40,794 bases of DNA from a phage. A program made the position numbers and the translations under genes. The notes beneath the pieces were generated by a model, which did no database searches, was not told the origin of the DNA, and saw nothing but the letters and a program-made list of their open reading frames with translations. Within the stretch, counting starts at the first letter, position 1. Each line of letters starts with the position of its first letter. Location of the stretch: the sequence record PZ683264.1. One strand, given 5' to 3'. This document shows positions 30,965 to 38,312 of the stretch, piece after piece.

Positions 30965-33055
30965 TTATCCTTGAACGAACTTGTAAGGCATGTTTGCAAT
31001 ATCTATGCAAGACGCAATAATTCCAAGAGATGATTCTACTTTCTGTTTAACATTTGATGAAACAAATGATGCAAAGTCAACTCTGTCTTCTATATCACCT
31101 GTCATTGTAACTACTTCACCGGTTTCCATTAAATGGTCTCCGTCATAGATTACCGATTCGGTGAGCTCTTCCGTGGTCATAACTTCAGCTTGAATGAGTT
31201 TTGTATTATTAGATGTTGTTCCGTCATTATTAGAAGCATCAGTTATTTTATTAACTTTGACCATCAATCCACGCGGTAGAATAACTTCAGCTTCTGTTGC
31301 TATTCCGAGACTTCCTGGATATACAACATTAACTTTATGAGCTCCATCAATTGCCCATCCTATTTGAACTTTAACGTATTCAGGATTTTCTTTATACGCT
31401 CTTATTTCGTTTGGATTAATAGTTATTCCTTCTTCATTTTTATCAACTGTTAATTCATTGCGAGCTTCTGGTTCTAAAAGACCAATACCAGCATGTGTGA
31501 TTCCAAAACGTCCAAAAATGATAGGAGTTAAAGAAGTAGATACAAAATTTCTGAAGTAGAACACTTTATTTTTAACTAACGCTTCGTATATAGGAGCAGT
31601 CATACTTTGAGCACGATAAACTGTGATGCCTTCCGGTATGCGGTCACCATTTTCAAAAGCTGAATCTAAGTTATTTATAGCAGATTCAATTTCTTTTTCA
31701 CTCATTACATCATATCGTTCTGGATTGTAACGACCTAAAAGAAGATTATTGATGTCAGTATATCCTGAACCGCAATATTCTCTAATGCCACGCTTTTGTG
31801 ATGGAGTATATTTAGAACCATCGCGGGCAATAGTAATATCAATCATTGGACCAGCACCAATTCCAGAAAAACTGTAAATCATTCGTTTGAGGAATTTAGT
31901 TTTTGCTGCGTTCCAGGAATTTTTAGTTATTTCTTCCCAGACTTCATCTGGTTGTCCTTTACGAGTTTTATTATGTTTATCAAGCCAATTATCTTTATAT
32001 TCTTCAAAGAGTTGATTAACAGCTGCTGTGTATTTCTCTAAACATTTTATTGAAGTAGTTGGTTCATTTTTAATTGCATTAAAAATTACTTCTTTAATTT
32101 TTTCTGAAACTTCACCGACTTGACTCATTGGAAAGAATTTATAATCATAGTGAAGTTCATCTGCCGTTCCTTCAGCAATAATTTTTGCTGCCTTTGTTTT
32201 AGAAGCTAATGAATTAATTCCAATTTTCATTTCTTCTGCTTCGGGAATTAAAGGTGCAGTAGCTGGTTTATTAAAATTAGCTGCTGTAGATTCATACTTA
32301 TGGAATAATTCACTTTCAAATCTAGAAGATTCCAATGACTGACTTTGTGCAATTGCTCTACGGGAAATTTTAACTTTAACGATTACAGCTTGGTCAGAAC
32401 GTTTATCATTTTCTTGTGCAATTGATGCTGCAATTGCCTCATTTTTAGTTACTTGGGCTCCAGTATCTTTATTGATATAAACATCACCGACCTTCGATTC
32501 AACTTTAGTAAAGAGCTCGGTACTAATTTCCGGAACTCCTGGAATGTCTTCTAGTGATACATTTTTGCGATGTATAAGAATATATGCATACTTTTTATCA
32601 TAATCCCAGAGTTCCTTAAGAAGGACGTATCTGCCACCTGAACGACTACGGATAAGTCTATCAGCAATAACTTGAATTTGTCGAGCTTGACCAGCGGTTT
32701 TAGACTTAAGAATACGAAGCATACAAGCATCAATTTTATACTGACGCATTGTTTGCATTGCAACAGTAAAAACCGAATTGATATAATTAATTGGGCTTGG
32801 ACCAAGACCTTTCAATTTAGCAATTGAACCTTTAGCGGTTAATGTAAAAGGAACAATATGCATCATTTTATCGCCCATCTTTAAATCACGATTAGTATCA
32901 CCTCCAGATGTATAGGTACATAAACGAAAGCCTGGTTGTTCAATTGCATCATCAACATGAACTGAAAAAATTTGTGGTATTTTCTTCTTTGGATTTAAGT
33001 TTGTAATCGGAAGAGTAGTATCTTCGTCAAATAATTCTGTAATTAGTTCCATCAT
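30965..33055 (-). CDS. alt: Alt ADP-ribosyltransferase (packaged, modifies host RNA polymerase)
   Basis: 696 aa; position between gene 54 and ligase gene 30; late promoter motif upstream. Confidence 0.85.
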   Translation of the reverse strand: MMELITELFDEDTTLPITNLNPKKKIPQIFSVHVDDAIEQPGFRLCTYTSGGDTNRDLKMGDKMMHIVPFTLTAKGSIAKLKGLGPSPINYINSVFTVAMQTMRQYKIDACMLRILKSKTAGQARQIQVIADRLIRSRSGGRYVLLKELWDYDKKYAYILIHRKNVSLEDIPGVPEISTELFTKVESKVGDVYINKDTGAQVTKNEAIAASIAQENDKRSDQAVIVKVKISRRAIAQSQSLESSRFESELFHKYESTAANFNKPATAPLIPEAEEMKIGINSLASKTKAAKIIAEGTADELHYDYKFFPMSQVGEVSEKIKEVIFNAIKNEPTTSIKCLEKYTAAVNQLFEEYKDNWLDKHNKTRKGQPDEVWEEITKNSWNAAKTKFLKRMIYSFSGIGAGPMIDITIARDGSKYTPSQKRGIREYCGSGYTDINNLLLGRYNPERYDVMSEKEIESAINNLDSAFENGDRIPEGITVYRAQSMTAPIYEALVKNKVFYFRNFVSTSLTPIIFGRFGITHAGIGLLEPEARNELTVDKNEEGITINPNEIRAYKENPEYVKVQIGWAIDGAHKVNVVYPGSLGIATEAEVILPRGLMVKVNKITDASNNDGTTSNNTKLIQAEVMTTEELTESVIYDGDHLMETGEVVTMTGDIEDRVDFASFVSSNVKQKVESSLGIIASCIDIANMPYKFVQG

Positions 33056-33075
33056 ATCCTCTCTAGTGTTTATTC

Positions 33076-33083
33076 TATTTATA
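33076..33083 (-). promoter_or_regulatory. Late promoter core TATAAATA (minus strand) upstream of alt
   Basis: Plus-strand tatttata about 21 nt upstream of the alt ATG; fits Alt being a packaged late protein. Confidence 0.55.
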
Positions 33084-33087
33084 AAAT

Positions 33088-33106
33088 TAAAGGCCCGAAG
33101 GCCTTT
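33088..33106 (-). terminator. Hairpin between the 62-aa ORF and alt
   Basis: aaaggcc-cgaa-ggccttt stem-loop overlapping the ORF stop, followed on the minus strand by aattttata. Confidence 0.4.
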
Positions 33107-33293
33107 AATAATCTATTGGTAAGAGAGTACGATATATTTCAAACTTTGGTCCTTTTTCATAGGCATCAAATGTTTCTGTGAATTTATTATAAGCGTATGC
33201 ATCTACAAATTCGAGAATGACTTGTGATACAGAAGTAGAAACATCTCCACCTTCTTTTTGAGCAACGACAATTGTTTCTAAGTAAGCTTTCAT
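33105..33293 (-). CDS. Hypothetical small protein
   Basis: 62 aa, ATG with GAGGT Shine-Dalgarno; ATGA overlap with the gene 30 stop. Confidence 0.55.
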   Translation of the reverse strand: MKAYLETIVVAQKEGGDVSTSVSQVILEFVDAYAYNKFTETFDAYEKGPKFEIYRTLLPIDY

Positions 33294-34753
33294 AGACCAG
33301 TTACCTCATGAAAATCACCAAATACATCCTCGAATGTATTAGCTTTAGTTTTATCTTCACGTAAACGAATCGCAATCGGAAGAAATAATTTAACGTAATC
33401 AGTGCGGCCGTCAGATTTTAACCAACCATTACATTCGCATTCTAGAATTTTTCCAATATAATAATTTTGGTTTTCCATGATGCGAGTACGGTCAAGTTCA
33501 TGCGATTTTACACCGGCTTTATCTTTTAAGCCTGAACCAGCATTTACTTTAATTTTTCCACACTCTGATTCAAGAATAAATCCACCTGCTTTAGTAGGGT
33601 CTTTACGGTGAGGATAAATTCCTACAATTTTTAAATCAACATCAATTACTTCTTTAAATTTATAGAGATTTTTTGAACGAGCATTTTCCCATAATCCATC
33701 GATATTTTTGAGAATAATACCTTCAAGACCTTGGTCAATATACTTTTTATAAATTACCTTAGCTTCATCTAGGTTATTTACTACCTGGTTTTCAATTAAA
33801 ATTACTTTATCATAGCCTGATGTCATTTGTTCTAGTTTAGAAAAACGTACATCATATTTCAAACGAAATGCAGGAAGACCGTATATTTCTACCAATGGAA
33901 CATAATCCCAGACCTGAAACTTCATGCATTGAGCTTCTTTTTCAGAAATGGTTCCCTTTAAAGATTTATTAGCGATTCCATTAGAAGTAGTACGTGATTC
34001 AGCTACTTCGGCGAATTCTTTGGCTTTACTAATTTCAGGATAAGCATCAAAAAGAAAATCTAGGCCTTCTGGCTCCTTTTTAACTTGCTCATGGTATACC
34101 AATTCGCCATCAATTAACACGCCTTCTGGATGAATCTGGCGGGCTTCAGCGGTCATTTTGATTAATTCTTCCTTAAGAAGATCTAATCCTAGATATTCAT
34201 TACCGGCTCGTGATAAAAGACGAACATCATCTAATTCATCACCTCTGACTTCGGCAAAGCACCGAGCCCCATCAGCTTTTAACTGGGCAAAGGCTGGAAA
34301 TTTGATATTCTTATTAATGCCTTTTTCATCATAAGAACTTGCCAGCATTTGAGGTTGTTCAGGAATTAAACCTGGCCAAACTTTGTTTGCAATAGATACT
34401 GAAGCACCACATTCAAGGTCTCGCATCATCACTCGACGCAAAACTTCAACATCATCTTTTTTACCATCAGTGATATATCCAGTTAATTCCTCAATTGCCG
34501 CATTTCCAGTCAATTTCCGAGTAGCTAACGTGAATTCAATGAAGTCGAGCATATCGGTAAGAGTCAACATTCCAAAACTCTGGGTAGCAATACCCGGTTT
34601 AGGCCATTTCTTGATATAATACTGTAACCCACGAGAATAAGTCAGACGATATACTCGTTTAAGCAATTCATTATCTTTATTCTTTTCAAGAATTGCTTGC
34701 TTCTGCTTAGTTGAACCAATAGATGCTATTTCGTTCAGAATTTTAAGAATCAT
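33290..34753 (-). CDS. 30: ATP-dependent DNA ligase gp30
   Basis: 487 aa; adenylation motif KADGAR (FAQLKADGARCF). Confidence 0.93.
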   Translation of the reverse strand: MILKILNEIASIGSTKQKQAILEKNKDNELLKRVYRLTYSRGLQYYIKKWPKPGIATQSFGMLTLTDMLDFIEFTLATRKLTGNAAIEELTGYITDGKKDDVEVLRRVMMRDLECGASVSIANKVWPGLIPEQPQMLASSYDEKGINKNIKFPAFAQLKADGARCFAEVRGDELDDVRLLSRAGNEYLGLDLLKEELIKMTAEARQIHPEGVLIDGELVYHEQVKKEPEGLDFLFDAYPEISKAKEFAEVAESRTTSNGIANKSLKGTISEKEAQCMKFQVWDYVPLVEIYGLPAFRLKYDVRFSKLEQMTSGYDKVILIENQVVNNLDEAKVIYKKYIDQGLEGIILKNIDGLWENARSKNLYKFKEVIDVDLKIVGIYPHRKDPTKAGGFILESECGKIKVNAGSGLKDKAGVKSHELDRTRIMENQNYYIGKILECECNGWLKSDGRTDYVKLFLPIAIRLREDKTKANTFEDVFGDFHEVTGL

Positions 34754-35019
34754 TGTTCATCCTTTAGAGTTTGGTTTACAGCTCTATTATAAATCAATTC
34801 ATCATTAAGCTCAGTCAAAGACCTGTGGTACGTGGTTCTAACTTTATTTCCTTGCATCCAGTGCTTGACGTAAATGAAACCTTGCTCTACACATTTTTTA
34901 AAAATTCGTTCGTCTTTTTGAGCTCGGAATTCTGGATTGCATCTAAAAAATTGATTTACGTGACCGTAATCACGTGTAGTATTACCTTCATTTTCATAAA
35001 TAGTATGAACAACAAACAT
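34750..35019 (-). CDS. Hypothetical protein (30.1 position)
   Basis: 89 aa ORF translationally coupled upstream of gene 30. Confidence 0.65.
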   Translation of the reverse strand: MFVVHTIYENEGNTTRDYGHVNQFFRCNPEFRAQKDERIFKKCVEQGFIYVKHWMQGNKVRTTYHRSLTELNDELIYNRAVNQTLKDEQ

Positions 35020-35867
35020 TAGAATGCTCCTTGGAAAATATTATCACCACTAGTAATTCTATTAAAATACCCTGTGTCACCAGGCTTAATATAACTCCAT
35101 GTATGGAATGGATGCATCTGATGTGAGTGCGTATAATATGGATGATATGGATTATAAGGATTAAATCCAGGAGTTCTCCAGGTAGTGTTCCAACGAAAAG
35201 AATCGTTTTTAATCATCTTTTCAATTACATCTTTTATAGCTTTTTCACTATCAAAACTTTCTTTATTTTCCTTTGGTGGAAAAAGCTTATTCTCTACATC
35301 ATTCCATGTATAAACTCGCTGAGCGGTTTTTGGAATACTGTCACGCTCCCCTCGAGCCATCCAATAAACAGGAACATTTAATATTTCACTTGCATGATCG
35401 CAGTGGTGAGCGAGATCGTCAATATAACAAATTACGTTATATTTCTCTTTTGCCTTTTTGAACAACTCTTCTTTTGAAGAATCATGACCACACATCAATA
35501 CTTCTGAGAAGGCACCAGGAAAAAGAGCATTCAAATTAAATTGACGATTCAGCAAAGCATCAATAGAATCACCCAATGCTGTAACAGCTACAAAATTATA
35601 ATCTTCTTTTAATTTATTAATTACACACAGGGCATCTTTATATGGAGACAAGTAACGAATAAAATCTGAACGATTGTATTTTTCAATTAACTTGACGCCA
35701 AGTTCTTCATCACAATTAAAGAGTTTACCAGGAGAAATAAATTTCTCATCTTGGATCATTTTTAAAATATGTTCTAACGGAAGATTATATTTCTGAGCAA
35801 AATAAGGGAGGCCTGATTGCCAGCTTAAACATACTCCATCAATATCAGTCAAAATAGTTGGCTTCAT
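35019..35867 (-). CDS. HAD-superfamily-like hydrolase/phosphatase (30.2 position)
   Basis: 282 aa; N-terminal ILTDIDGV matches HAD motif I (DxDx[T/V]); Pro/Tyr/His-rich C-terminal tail. Confidence 0.65.
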   Translation of the reverse strand: MKPTILTDIDGVCLSWQSGLPYFAQKYNLPLEHILKMIQDEKFISPGKLFNCDEELGVKLIEKYNRSDFIRYLSPYKDALCVINKLKEDYNFVAVTALGDSIDALLNRQFNLNALFPGAFSEVLMCGHDSSKEELFKKAKEKYNVICYIDDLAHHCDHASEILNVPVYWMARGERDSIPKTAQRVYTWNDVENKLFPPKENKESFDSEKAIKDVIEKMIKNDSFRWNTTWRTPGFNPYNPYHPYYTHSHQMHPFHTWSYIKPGDTGYFNRITSGDNIFQGAF

Positions 35868-36322
35868 AGAGAGTCTCTTAATAGGTTTAACACATCAATA
35901 AATTCAGCTTCGGTTAGTATTGTATCATCTTTTGTTAGACCACTAGCCATGCTGTGCTTCAAAACTTTTCCTTTCGAGGCTTGTAATGCATCACGAAAGC
36001 CCTTGTTTTGGATCGCTGCTTCAAAATATGCATTTGTGTATAATTCTTTCCACGCTGGAGAGTATCTTGAAAATGGAACTCCAAGCCAGAAGAGGGTTCC
36101 ACGGTCCTGAGCTCTTGCATAAGACCTTCCAGCTTGTTGGGCGGCAAGCCCGGATAACCCAAATATACGACGTTGTTGTTCAACGTTTTTCACCTTGCAT
36201 CCTTGGAGGAATCCTTCAAGACCTCCAAATTGAATACCATCCATAACGAAAGGCCATTGGGCGAAATTACTTAATGCACATGATGGCCACCTAAAATTGC
36301 TTCTAATCTCTAACTCAGACAT
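35864..36322 (-). CDS. NADAR/YbiA-like (DUF1768) domain protein (30.3 position)
   Basis: Track start 36328 is TTG, first ATG at 36322; LSNFAQWPFVMDGIQFGGLEGFLQGCKV closely parallels E. coli YbiA FSNFAAWPIKVDGKTWPTSEHYFQAQKF as recalled. Confidence 0.6.
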   Translation of the reverse strand: MSELEIRSNFRWPSCALSNFAQWPFVMDGIQFGGLEGFLQGCKVKNVEQQRRIFGLSGLAAQQAGRSYARAQDRGTLFWLGVPFSRYSPAWKELYTNAYFEAAIQNKGFRDALQASKGKVLKHSMASGLTKDDTILTEAEFIDVLNLLRDSL

Positions 36323-36530
36323 TTTCAATGCTTATAATTTCAACATCAGCCCAATGACCGTAACCCGGTAAACGGTCTTCAATAGATAATCCGCCATCAT
36401 ATTTAAGCATTTTAATTGTCATAATATATGGCTCTAAATGGTCTTCTGTGAGAGGAGAAACGTCAGTCACACGATAAGTAACTTCAACCATTTCCGTACC
36501 TAATAATTTCTGAATTAATTTCTTAAACAT
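36315..36530 (-). CDS. Hypothetical protein (30.3' position)
   Basis: 71 aa ORF, ATG start. Confidence 0.55.
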   Translation of the reverse strand: MFKKLIQKLLGTEMVEVTYRVTDVSPLTEDHLEPYIMTIKMLKYDGGLSIEDRLPGYGHWADVEIISIENV

Positions 36531-36534
36531 TTTA

Positions 36535-36822
36535 TTAGAACCTCATCTGAAAACCGTGCGATTTAACATTACCGCCGCCAATATCAGAAATGTTAATTTC
36601 ACGCGCAATTGAAGGGTCAATGTCAATTTCGCGATTGAGTTTAGTGATAGCTAAAGTATCACGCCCATTTACTGTACGGAATTCTAAAGGACAAACCACA
36701 TCAACGTAGTTTTTAATCGATTCGCTAGTAGGTTGCAAATGTGCAGGAAGATCTTTAGGCGCCTTTGAGAAAACTACTTCGCAGAAGTTTTTACGGGTAT
36801 CAAAATAAGTGGTCATAAACAT
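36535..36822 (-). CDS. Hypothetical protein (30.x family)
   Basis: 95 aa ORF, ATG start with GAGGA Shine-Dalgarno. Confidence 0.6.
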   Translation of the reverse strand: MFMTTYFDTRKNFCEVVFSKAPKDLPAHLQPTSESIKNYVDVVCPLEFRTVNGRDTLAITKLNREIDIDPSIAREINISDIGGGNVKSHGFQMRF

Positions 36823-36837
36823 AATAATTTCCTCAGT

Positions 36838-36860
36838 GAGGGGCTGAAGCCCCTCATTTT
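36838..36860. terminator. Intergenic GC hairpin with a T-run on the plus strand (possible antisense terminator or RNA processing site)
   Basis: gaggggc-tgaa-gcccctc followed on the plus strand by attttatttt; lies between two minus-strand ORFs. Confidence 0.35.
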
Positions 36861-36863
36861 ATT

Positions 36864-37229
36864 TTAAATATCAAATTCGTTAAGAACTACATCAAAGATT
36901 GCTTCGAGATGTTCAGGTTTAGCTCTGTTACTCAGAATATGACGAATCCAAGTTTTAACTAGAAGCTTGCGATTAGCACCATTCCAGCAAGGATGAGTCC
37001 CTAAATCACGTTGACGAAAATCATCATCCAAAGCAATTTTGAAGTTGGAACCTTCCATCGTGATTGAAACCGTGATACCGTTTTCAAATCGCATATAAAC
37101 GTAGTTAGGAGTCATATACTGATCGATTTCGCATACTGATCCATTTTGATGTTTCCAAAGGCAAATAGTATCAATAGAACCTGCAATACCATTAGAAACA
37201 TATTTACGTTCAAAGTTAATGTAGTTCAT
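36864..37229 (-). CDS. Hypothetical protein (30.x family)
   Basis: Track start 37241 is TTG; ATG at 37229 with GGAGA Shine-Dalgarno gives 121 aa; early-promoter-like motif upstream. Confidence 0.6.
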   Translation of the reverse strand: MNYINFERKYVSNGIAGSIDTICLWKHQNGSVCEIDQYMTPNYVYMRFENGITVSITMEGSNFKIALDDDFRQRDLGTHPCWNGANRKLLVKTWIRHILSNRAKPEHLEAIFDVVLNEFDI

Positions 37230-37265
37230 TTTATTCTCCAAGATGTTTAATTGTGGTACAGGTAT

Positions 37266-37294
37266 ATAATATCATATCCTGTACCAAAGTAAAC
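37266..37294 (-). promoter_or_regulatory. Early (sigma70-like) promoter upstream of the 36864..37229 ORF
   Basis: Minus strand GTTTAC, 17 nt, TATTAT; the -10 lies inside an 8-bp inverted repeat ggtacagg/cctgtacc. Confidence 0.45.
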
Positions 37295-37296
37295 AA

Positions 37297-37629
37297 TTAT
37301 TTTACTACTTTCCAATGCTGCATGTCAAGTTTACCAACTTTTTTCATCTTCTCAATTAAGCGTTCGGCACGTTGGCGAGCTGTAACATAATGCCATTCGC
37401 CTAATTCATTTTGTTCAATTTTTCCAACGATTACTGTATTCAATTCATAAATCCAACCAGTAAAGAAATTATGAACTTGAATTGTAAAGGTGAAATCTGT
37501 TCCCATACCTTCTGTTGTTTCTACTTCAATGATATCACCTTCAACTGCCATTAAGAACCACATAGTTTCATCATATTTACCATTGAAGCATTTAGTTTTA
37601 ACTGCAGCGTTCAGATTAATCGTTTTCAT
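37297..37629 (-). CDS. Hypothetical protein (30.x family)
   Basis: 110 aa ORF, ATG with AGGAGA Shine-Dalgarno; early-promoter-like motif and terminator upstream. Confidence 0.6.
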   Translation of the reverse strand: MKTINLNAAVKTKCFNGKYDETMWFLMAVEGDIIEVETTEGMGTDFTFTIQVHNFFTGWIYELNTVIVGKIEQNELGEWHYVTARQRAERLIEKMKKVGKLDMQHWKVVK

Positions 37630-37657
37630 TTTATTCTCCTTTGTTTGTGTAAGATAA

Positions 37658-37686
37658 TACTATCACAAAGGAGCTATACTGTAAAC
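37658..37686 (-). promoter_or_regulatory. Early promoter-like motif upstream of the 37297..37629 ORF
   Basis: Minus strand GTTTAC, 17-18 nt, TAGTAT/ATAGTA; directly downstream of a terminator hairpin. Confidence 0.4.
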
Positions 37687-37699
37687 AACTTTGTGCAAT

Positions 37700-37734
37700 C
37701 TTTGGAAAATAAAAAAGGACTCCCGAAGGAGTCC
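37700..37734 (-). terminator. Rho-independent terminator downstream of the basic-protein ORF
   Basis: ggactcc-cgaa-ggagtcc hairpin followed on the minus strand by TTTTTTATTTT. Confidence 0.7.
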
Positions 37735-37739
37735 TCAAC

Positions 37740-37958
37740 TTATGCTTTCTGCTTACCAAAACGAGAAGCATCATCTCGAAGAACCGCACGTGCTCGGCGC
37801 ATGATCTTCTCAACAGTTTGATTGATACGAGAGTTCGACCCACGCTTGTAACCAGCGCGTTTAGAATCACCAACTTTCTTTTCAACTGCTTTCTTTGCTT
37901 TAGCTTGTTTTGCCATTATAAATTCTCTTTTAAATGAAAATGCAGGACTTATTGGCAT
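37740..37958 (-). CDS. Small highly basic protein (Lys/Arg-rich), possible nucleic-acid binder
   Basis: 72 aa per track; internal start at MAKQAKAKKAVEKK (37916) also possible; followed by a terminator hairpin; my hand count of this stretch disagreed with the track frame by 1 nt. Confidence 0.5.
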   Translation of the reverse strand: MPISPAFSFKREFIMAKQAKAKKAVEKKVGDSKRAGYKRGSNSRINQTVEKIMRRARAVLRDDASRFGKQKA

Positions 37959-38312
37959 TGCCTGCGAAAGCCCTCAAGGGGTACTTAGGTTTTGAATATT
38001 TAACGACAGGATAACCATAAACCCGTCATCATACCTTATAGCTCTTATCTGTTGCACACCGTTAGCTTAAAGGTTCCGGGTTCGATTTCTCGAGGATAAG
38101 ATATATACTGATGGATATATAGGCCTTGAGGCGTACTCCCGATTGGCCATCACCTCGGGGTAGCATGCACTTGCCGCTATAAGAATAACATTCAAGAGGT
38201 ACACCATAAAACTGCCGGGGTCTTAAAACTATAATGATTCGCAAATCATTAATCAGACAGTTCGATGGCTCCTCGATTTTAGCTCACACTAAGGCAGTGA
38301 ATCTCCAATAAA
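37959..38312. other. ORF-poor ~350-bp intergenic region with several predicted stem-loops
   Basis: No ATG-initiated ORF of 60 aa or more on either strand; long-range complementarity cctcaagg (about 37971) / ccttgagg (about 38124), tcttatc (about 38043) / gataaga (about 38095), and hairpin aatgatt-cgcaa-atcatt (about 38233-38254). Confidence 0.5.

Follow-up and report, generated by a model that had tools for sequence, protein, structure and literature searches.

Bacteriophage T4 gp30.3, or AdfN (anti-DarT factor NADAR), neutralises DarTG1 as a DNA ADP-ribosylglycohydrolase specific for guanine (PMC11825919, PMC11125620). The resistance of T-even phages to DarTG1 was mapped to gene 30.3, which was renamed adfN (Johannesman et al., bioRxiv 2024; Nat Commun 2025;16:1598; PMC11825919). 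The gene is necessary in T4 and rescues RB69 when expressed in trans, and the purified protein removes ADP-ribose from DarT1-modified DNA and does not bind DarT1 (PMC11825919). Purified T4 gp30.3 hydrolyses guanosine-ADP-ribose (guanosine-ADPr), and not thymidine-ADPr, in DNA (PMC11125620). The present analysis concerns a stretch of phage DNA of 40,794 nucleotides (sequence record PZ683264.1; the whole stretch is hereafter referred to as the window), one minus-strand gene of which is very probably the Tequatrovirus orthologue of T4 30.3, that is adfN, coding for an orphan NADAR enzyme that reverses the ADP-ribosylation of guanine by DarT1.

In their bioinformatic classification of 2012, as related by Schuller et al. 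2023, de Souza and Aravind set apart a phage branch of the NADAR superfamily with His at the position of the conserved Glu, and the gp30.3 proteins were equated with these phage NADARs in Toxins 2024 (PMC11125620). In the literature, other NADARs have a catalytic Glu or Asp in the last strand, and the phage NADARs have His. The substitutions E36A and K43A impair T4 AdfN; a frameshift in the RB69 allele truncates this copy 15 residues early and makes it non-functional, and an engineered truncation impairs function as well (Johannesman et al., PMC11825919). On DarTG1 hosts, a T4 transposon screen (HIDEN-SEQ, bioRxiv 2025) yielded just two significant genes, 30.3 (log2 fold change -7.25, adjusted p 0) and 30.4 (log2 fold change -1.79, adjusted p 0.014), with insertions in alt being without effect on these hosts and 30.3 being dispensable on plain K-12.

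Identity of the protein and its relationship to NADAR

The window protein is identical to T4 gp30.3 (NP_049816) at 151 of 152 residues, without gaps, and the sole replacement, I125M, is conservative and restores the family consensus. It matches the Pfam family PF08010 (Phage_30_3, Bacteriophage protein GP30.3) with an E-value of 2.3e-70 and 235.2 bits (cut-off 36), the match covering residues 13-152 and the profile positions 1-138 of 138, and it also matches PHROG 652 (E 1e-51). Because of the strength of the PF08010 match and the synonymous nature of ten of the eleven nucleotide differences from T4 in the 30.3 frame, the open reading frame (ORF) at 35864-36322 is judged to be a real gene under purifying selection and not a chance occurrence. 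The gene was matched in 650 phage records, almost all of them from T4-like phages of Escherichia, Shigella or Yersinia.

An internal out-of-frame ORF annotated in T4 as 30.3' (35959-36183, minus strand) was rejected as a real gene: its T4 ATG is ACG in the window, and each of the eight differences that it contains alters an amino acid in its own frame and is synonymous in the 30.3 frame. Several gp30.3 entries in the databases (P0004-P0006) are 126 residues long and begin at Met27. In the phage vB_EcoM_Lutter (L029, MT682714.1; 2507-2965), an unbroken ORF of 152 residues codes for the same protein as in the window; the 126-residue form of Lutter is a mis-called start, by which the WPSCALSNF motif and the strands at the N-terminus are lost.

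The first-pass annotation of the window, made from the letters of the DNA, had described the product as NADAR/YbiA-like, and this was borne out by motif alignment, by profile-profile comparison and by the predicted fold. With the ATG at 36322 as the start, the segment quoted there, FRWPSCALSNFAQWPFVMDGIQFGGLEGFLQGCKV, corresponds to residues 10-44, and the YbiA motif given alongside, FSNFAAWPIKVDGKTWPTSEHYFQAQKF, is exactly YbiA residues 29-56, which align to residues 17-44 of the window protein. Pairwise BLASTP with YbiA gave 33% identity over 57 residues (E 8e-6). When a profile of ten gp30.3 relatives was compared with the PDB sequences, the top match was E. coli YbiA (2b3w; E 0.055), with LSNFAQWPFVMDGIQFGGLEGFLQGCKV paired with the same YbiA motif. 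Alignment of the gp30.3 family to 17 YbiA/NADAR proteins with hhalign gave a probability of 95.3% and an E-value of 2.3e-8 over 98 columns, pairing E36, Q40 and K43 with YbiA E48, Q52 and K55. The predicted fold matches YbiA and two other NADAR structures only; the model has the helical core of the YbiA fold with a small beta-sheet on either side, at 18-19% identity to YbiA in the structural comparison. Matches to the Pfam NADAR family PF08719 were found in nine of 54 long representatives of the gp30.3 family (best E 1.2e-6), a 34%-identical relative matches it at E 0.001 and 19.8 bits, under the 35.1-bit cut-off, and certain YbiA homologues are labelled with both PF08010 and PF08719. Membership of the window protein in the NADAR superfamily is supported by these comparisons.

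Catalytic residues and probable function

The residues E36, K43 and H123 are invariant in the relatives down to 34% identity, and Q40 is likewise invariant. The first core helix, LEGFLQGCK, holds the Glu and the Lys of the YbiA motif SEHxFQxxK; the catalytic residues, on which the first-pass annotation had let its proposal depend, are present in the hhalign alignment as E36 and K43. H123 (in LKHS) lies in the model strand 120-123, in which residue 122 varies between K, R and Y among the relatives. The C-terminal helix is predicted at residues 138-151, and the protein is collinear with that of T4. A reading of the gene as an inactive or decaying allele, retained like the RB69 gene by synteny alone, draws on the shortened versions that are common in databases (86-126 residues) and on the frameshifted, non-functional copy of RB69; it is rendered highly improbable by the full-length ORF with its C-terminal helix, by the key residues being all intact and by the synonymous differences from T4 (10 of 11), and at least one short entry (Lutter, 126 residues) is just a mis-called start on an intact ORF.

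Since the C-terminal helix is complete, E36, K43 and H123 are in place and 151 of 152 residues are shared with T4 AdfN, the I125M allele would be expected to behave like T4 AdfN in its activity, its guanine specificity and its DarTG1 phenotype. The identity of the protein, its NADAR fold and profile relationship, the residues E36, K43 and H123, the C-terminus and the evidence for selection come from this analysis; activity, specificity and phenotype come from the T4 literature. A role against DarT-type ADP-ribosylating defence, which had been put forward together with the NADAR assignment, gains support through this near-identity to T4 AdfN, for which a role against DarTG1 is published. In the mechanism proposed here, DarT1, activated on infection, would ADP-ribosylate guanine N2 in the phage DNA and so block replication. 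AdfN, produced from the early region along with the ligase cluster, would hydrolyse the N-glycosidic bond of guanine N2-ADP-ribose, releasing ADP-ribose and giving back the unmodified template, and the phage would replicate despite DarTG1. AdfN would then be an antitoxin-like orphan that repairs the DNA lesion, with no binding or inhibition of the toxin.

Several results and published data weigh against this interpretation. The Pfam NADAR model PF08719 did not match the window protein even at E-values up to 1, no model matched it in the NCBIfam search, and a single-sequence phmmer search against the PDB returned nothing significant; of the profile evidence for NADAR looked to in the first-pass annotation, the profile-profile match was obtained and the direct PF08719 match was absent. 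As the direct family searches gave no NADAR label, the superfamily link rests on the profile-profile and predicted-structure comparisons together with the literature. In the hhalign alignment, YbiA H126 is the partner of H123, and the catalytic E125 that of the variable residue 122, a placement one column off the published His-for-Glu equivalence, which was not reproduced at the level of residues. T4 gp30.3 fails to rescue uninfected E. coli from DarT1 (PMC11125620), and AdfN barely rescues non-T-even phages (PMC11825919), so that the proposed in vivo mechanism is incomplete. An unknown T-even factor was postulated by Johannesman et al. for full AdfN activity (PMC11825919). The preprint idea of hydroxymethyl-cytosine DNA as the source of the specificity was withdrawn in the published version, T4-GT7 with unmodified DNA being still protected (Johannesman et al., PMC11825919).

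The place of YbiA as the best PDB match, by structure and by sequence, and the weak NCBIfam match of a relative to a riboflavin-intermediate N-glycosidase model would be in keeping with a YbiA-like housekeeping N-glycosidase acting not on DNA but on small ribosyl compounds such as the intermediates of the riboflavin pathway. However, identity to YbiA is merely 18-19%, the last-strand Glu that defines YbiA is not kept as Glu and the signature His of the phage proteins is found, the gene sits among T4 early genes with no riboflavin genes, and the T4 protein works on ADP-ribosylated DNA with a phenotype specific to DarTG1. A housekeeping function of this kind is accordingly regarded as very improbable.

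It is unlikely, if somewhat less so, that the main or additional substrates are other than DarT1-modified DNA, such as ADP-ribosylated RNA, soluble ADPr immune signals or the adducts of Alt, ModA and ModB. A survey of viral NAD and ADPr metabolism proposed soluble ADPr derivatives as substrates of phage NADARs and noted their co-expression with ADP-ribosyltransferases in T4-like phages (PMC9503650). Removal of guanine-linked ADPr (G-ADPr) from RNA has been reported for all NADAR families, that of T4 included, and in the window alt lies 2.8 kb from adfN and is transcribed in the same direction. Against such substrates, insertions in alt are neutral on DarTG1 and 30.3 is dispensable on K-12, which leaves no sign of a role in self-repair; the phenotype that has been demonstrated is specific to DarTG1, and the T4 enzyme leaves T-ADPr, with removal of C-ADPr being listed for the NADAR and YbiA families only. 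Activity on these substrates would be compatible with the reversal of DarT1 modification by AdfN.

Gene organisation and neighbouring genes

An uninterrupted ORF on the minus strand spans 35864-36328 and codes for 154 residues when counted from the TTG at 36328. The first-pass annotation had given these coordinates for the gene; the ORF is real, and its start lies more probably two codons further in, at the ATG at 36322. This ATG is taken as the most likely start of adfN, and 35864-36322 as its most likely extent, because the T4 annotation and the 152-residue homologues begin there, overlapping the stop of the upstream gene 30.4 within ATGTCTGA. The product of 152 residues equals in length that annotated for T4 gene 30.3 and most of the full-length homologues. 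The features of the region are listed in Table 1.

Table 1. Features of the adfN region of the window and NADAR-NT5C fusions in related contigs
Feature	Position	Strand	Basis or remark
adfN / gene 30.3 coding sequence, phage-type NADAR ADP-ribosylglycohydrolase, 152 residues + TGA stop	35864..36322	-	ORF, PF08010, T4 identity, NADAR fold/profile matches
Two extra codons TTG AAA 5' of the ATG, in the first-pass coordinates, probably untranslated	36323..36328	-	T4 and homologue starts
N-terminal NADAR core motif (WPSCALSNF ... LEGFLQGCKV), residues 10-44	36191..36295	-	aligned to YbiA 28-56 by BLASTP, hmmsearch, hhalign
Glu36 codon, catalytic glutamate, aligns to YbiA E48	36215..36217	-	invariant in gp30.3 relatives; hhalign
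Lys43 codon, catalytic/ADP-ribose-contacting lysine, aligns to YbiA K55	36194..36196	-	invariant; hhalign
His123 codon, last beta-strand, marks phage (gp30.3) NADAR subfamily	35954..35956	-	invariant in relatives; literature
C-terminal helix, residues 138-152, intact	35867..35911	-	model helix 138-151; same length as T4
Gene 30.4, 71 residues, directly upstream; stop overlaps adfN start	36315..36530	-	
Gene 30.2, 282 residues, directly downstream; its ATG overlaps adfN TGA (ATGA)	35019..35867	-	
DNA ligase, gene 30	33290-34753	-	
alt, ADP-ribosyltransferase, ORF of 696 residues	30965-33055	-	PF03496
NADAR-NT5C fusion ORFs	L024:3914-4969, L025:3478-4440	+	

The window comes from a T4-like genome, and the 10.8 kb around adfN are ~97% identical to many Tequatrovirus genomes. 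The adjoining ORFs of adfN are T4 genes, and the order of the map on the minus strand is alt, alt.1, ligase, 30.1, 30.2, 30.3, 30.4, 30.6, 30.7, 30.8, 30.9, rIII and 31, continuing to cd. The gene had been described at first as lying between DNA ligase and Alt; this placement did not hold, as seen from alt it lies beyond the ligase. A scan of 33000-38300 for sigma-70 promoters and terminators yielded 23 against 18.3 +/- 3.9 expected, which is within chance. A 10-bp GC-rich hairpin, AGTGAGGGGC-TGAA-GCCCCTCATT, is present at 36831-36858 (both strands) inside the 41-nucleotide gap between 30.7 and 30.6, its terminator-like score coming chiefly from the plus strand, the genes being on the other. 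Among phages with a ligase and an adfN nearly identical to those of the window (loci L003-L016), identity in the N-terminal part of Alt lies between 97% and ~30%, indicating mosaic exchange of alt alleles beside a conserved ligase block.

The 30.4 allele of the window has diverged, its product sharing 53% identity with that of T4; the C-terminal 15 residues are identical and overlap the start region of adfN. A counterpart of T4 30.5 was not found in the window, in which 30.6 abuts 30.4 (36315-36535). Since the stop of 30.4 overlaps the start of adfN, the signal of 30.4 in the T4 transposon screen may, in the simplest reading, be a polar effect.

A comparison of 26 related viral loci around adfN showed that 30.2 directly follows 30.3 in all Tevenvirinae-type loci, down to 46% AdfN identity, with the more distant loci being without 30.2. 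No Pfam match was found for gp30.2. A HAD fold is predicted for its N-terminal 200 residues, with a predicted local distance difference test score (pLDDT) above 90 and invariant D8, D10, D150 and D151; with scores normalised to the target, deoxyribonucleotidases come first among its structural matches, and its best PDB profile match is mouse cdN (E 0.016). The closest assignment for gp30.2 would be a HAD-fold phosphatase whose N-terminal domain resembles 5'(3')-deoxyribonucleotidases. In its tail, pLDDT falls below 50 at residues 228-231 and 242-282, consistent with disorder; the tail is rich in Pro, Asn, Tyr and His and variable among the relatives.

A gp30.3-type NADAR is fused to a C-terminal HAD domain (PF06941, NT5C) in two distant uncultured-phage contigs, L024 and L025 (E 7e-10 and 8e-15, respectively), and the same fusion occurs in three of 147 family representatives (P0254, P0260 and P0369) from a library of 1.84 billion proteins. 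Further long members of the family carry ASCH, LRR or unidentified extensions, the NT5C fusion being a minority architecture. The hidden Markov model of gp30.2 matched none of the fused HAD domains, and hhalign with one of them gave a probability of 48.7%.

As 30.4 scores in the DarTG1 screen, gp30.2 is HAD-like and NT5C is fused to gp30.3-type NADARs, the idea arises that AdfN acts with a translationally coupled neighbour, gp30.4 or gp30.2, as the T-even factor or as a second step of the pathway, in which the ADP-ribose set free, or damaged nucleotides, would be processed; this is considered unlikely. A requirement of gp30.2 as the cofactor of AdfN was rejected in view of the T4 HIDEN-SEQ data on DarTG1 (log2 fold change -0.12, p 0.61), and a cofactor or Rosetta-stone link is weakened by the weak similarity of gp30.2 to the fused HAD domains and by the rarity of the fusion. 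gp30.2 may act as a non-essential downstream contributor.

Significance and comparison with described systems

The gene codes for AdfN, an enzyme characterised before, and is by itself no new biology; the finding mainly confirms that a real counter-defence gene can be recovered from raw sequence. To judge from its sequence, the phage, unlike RB69, carries an intact and probably active anti-DarTG1 enzyme, which is useful for the prediction of host range on DarTG1 strains. Side leads as to the restriction of full AdfN activity to T-even infections are offered by the NADAR-NT5C fusions, by gp30.2 with its HAD fold, by the signal of 30.4 and by the variable 30.4/30.5 segment, the gp30.2 lead being already weakened by the published T4 screen data.

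DarG1, the DarT1-linked NADAR (BC4488; for example that of Geobacter/Trichlorobacter lovleyi, 8BAT, or of E. coli C7), differs from the window protein in several respects. The window gene has no adjoining DarT gene: its neighbours are 30.4 and 30.2, and the sole ADP-ribosyltransferase in the window region is Alt (PF03496), which belongs to another family. The window protein lacks the N-terminal extension and consists of the core domain alone, with 152 residues against about 219. DarG1 has Asp in the last strand, where the window protein has His123, a contrast also drawn in the literature, and T4 AdfN cannot substitute as an antitoxin in uninfected cells.

YbiA (PDB 2B3W; NADAR/DUF1768, PF08719) is a host gene with a housekeeping role or a place in a DNA-damage operon and is tied to riboflavin intermediates and swarming. 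Its Glu signature VEHTE and its C-terminal D..WG.G are not conserved in the window protein. E125, D130, W133 and G136-G137 are invariant in the alignment of the 17 YbiA/NADAR proteins, and the counterpart of this C-terminal region in the window protein is LKHSMASGLTKDDTILTE, with the hhalign match stopping at residue 126.

NADAR-Bas32, NADAR-Bas60 and the T4 macrodomain protein AdfM (tk.4) are likewise orphan ADP-ribosylglycohydrolases of phages that reverse DarT-type DNA modification. NADAR-Bas32 and NADAR-Bas60 belong to other NADAR clades and function without the T-even context, and AdfM, a macrodomain protein by its fold, acts against DarTG2 (thymidine-ADPr) and not against DarTG1.

The closest described system is that of T4 AdfN. 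The window differs from T4 in the absence of 30.5 and in its 30.4 allele, which is only 53% identical to that of T4. The two proteins are of equal length, in both phages the gene overlaps 30.4 at its ATG and 30.2 at its stop and has the same place upstream of 30.2, 30.1 and the ligase gene, and E36, K43, H123 and the C-terminal helix of T4 AdfN are all present in the window protein.
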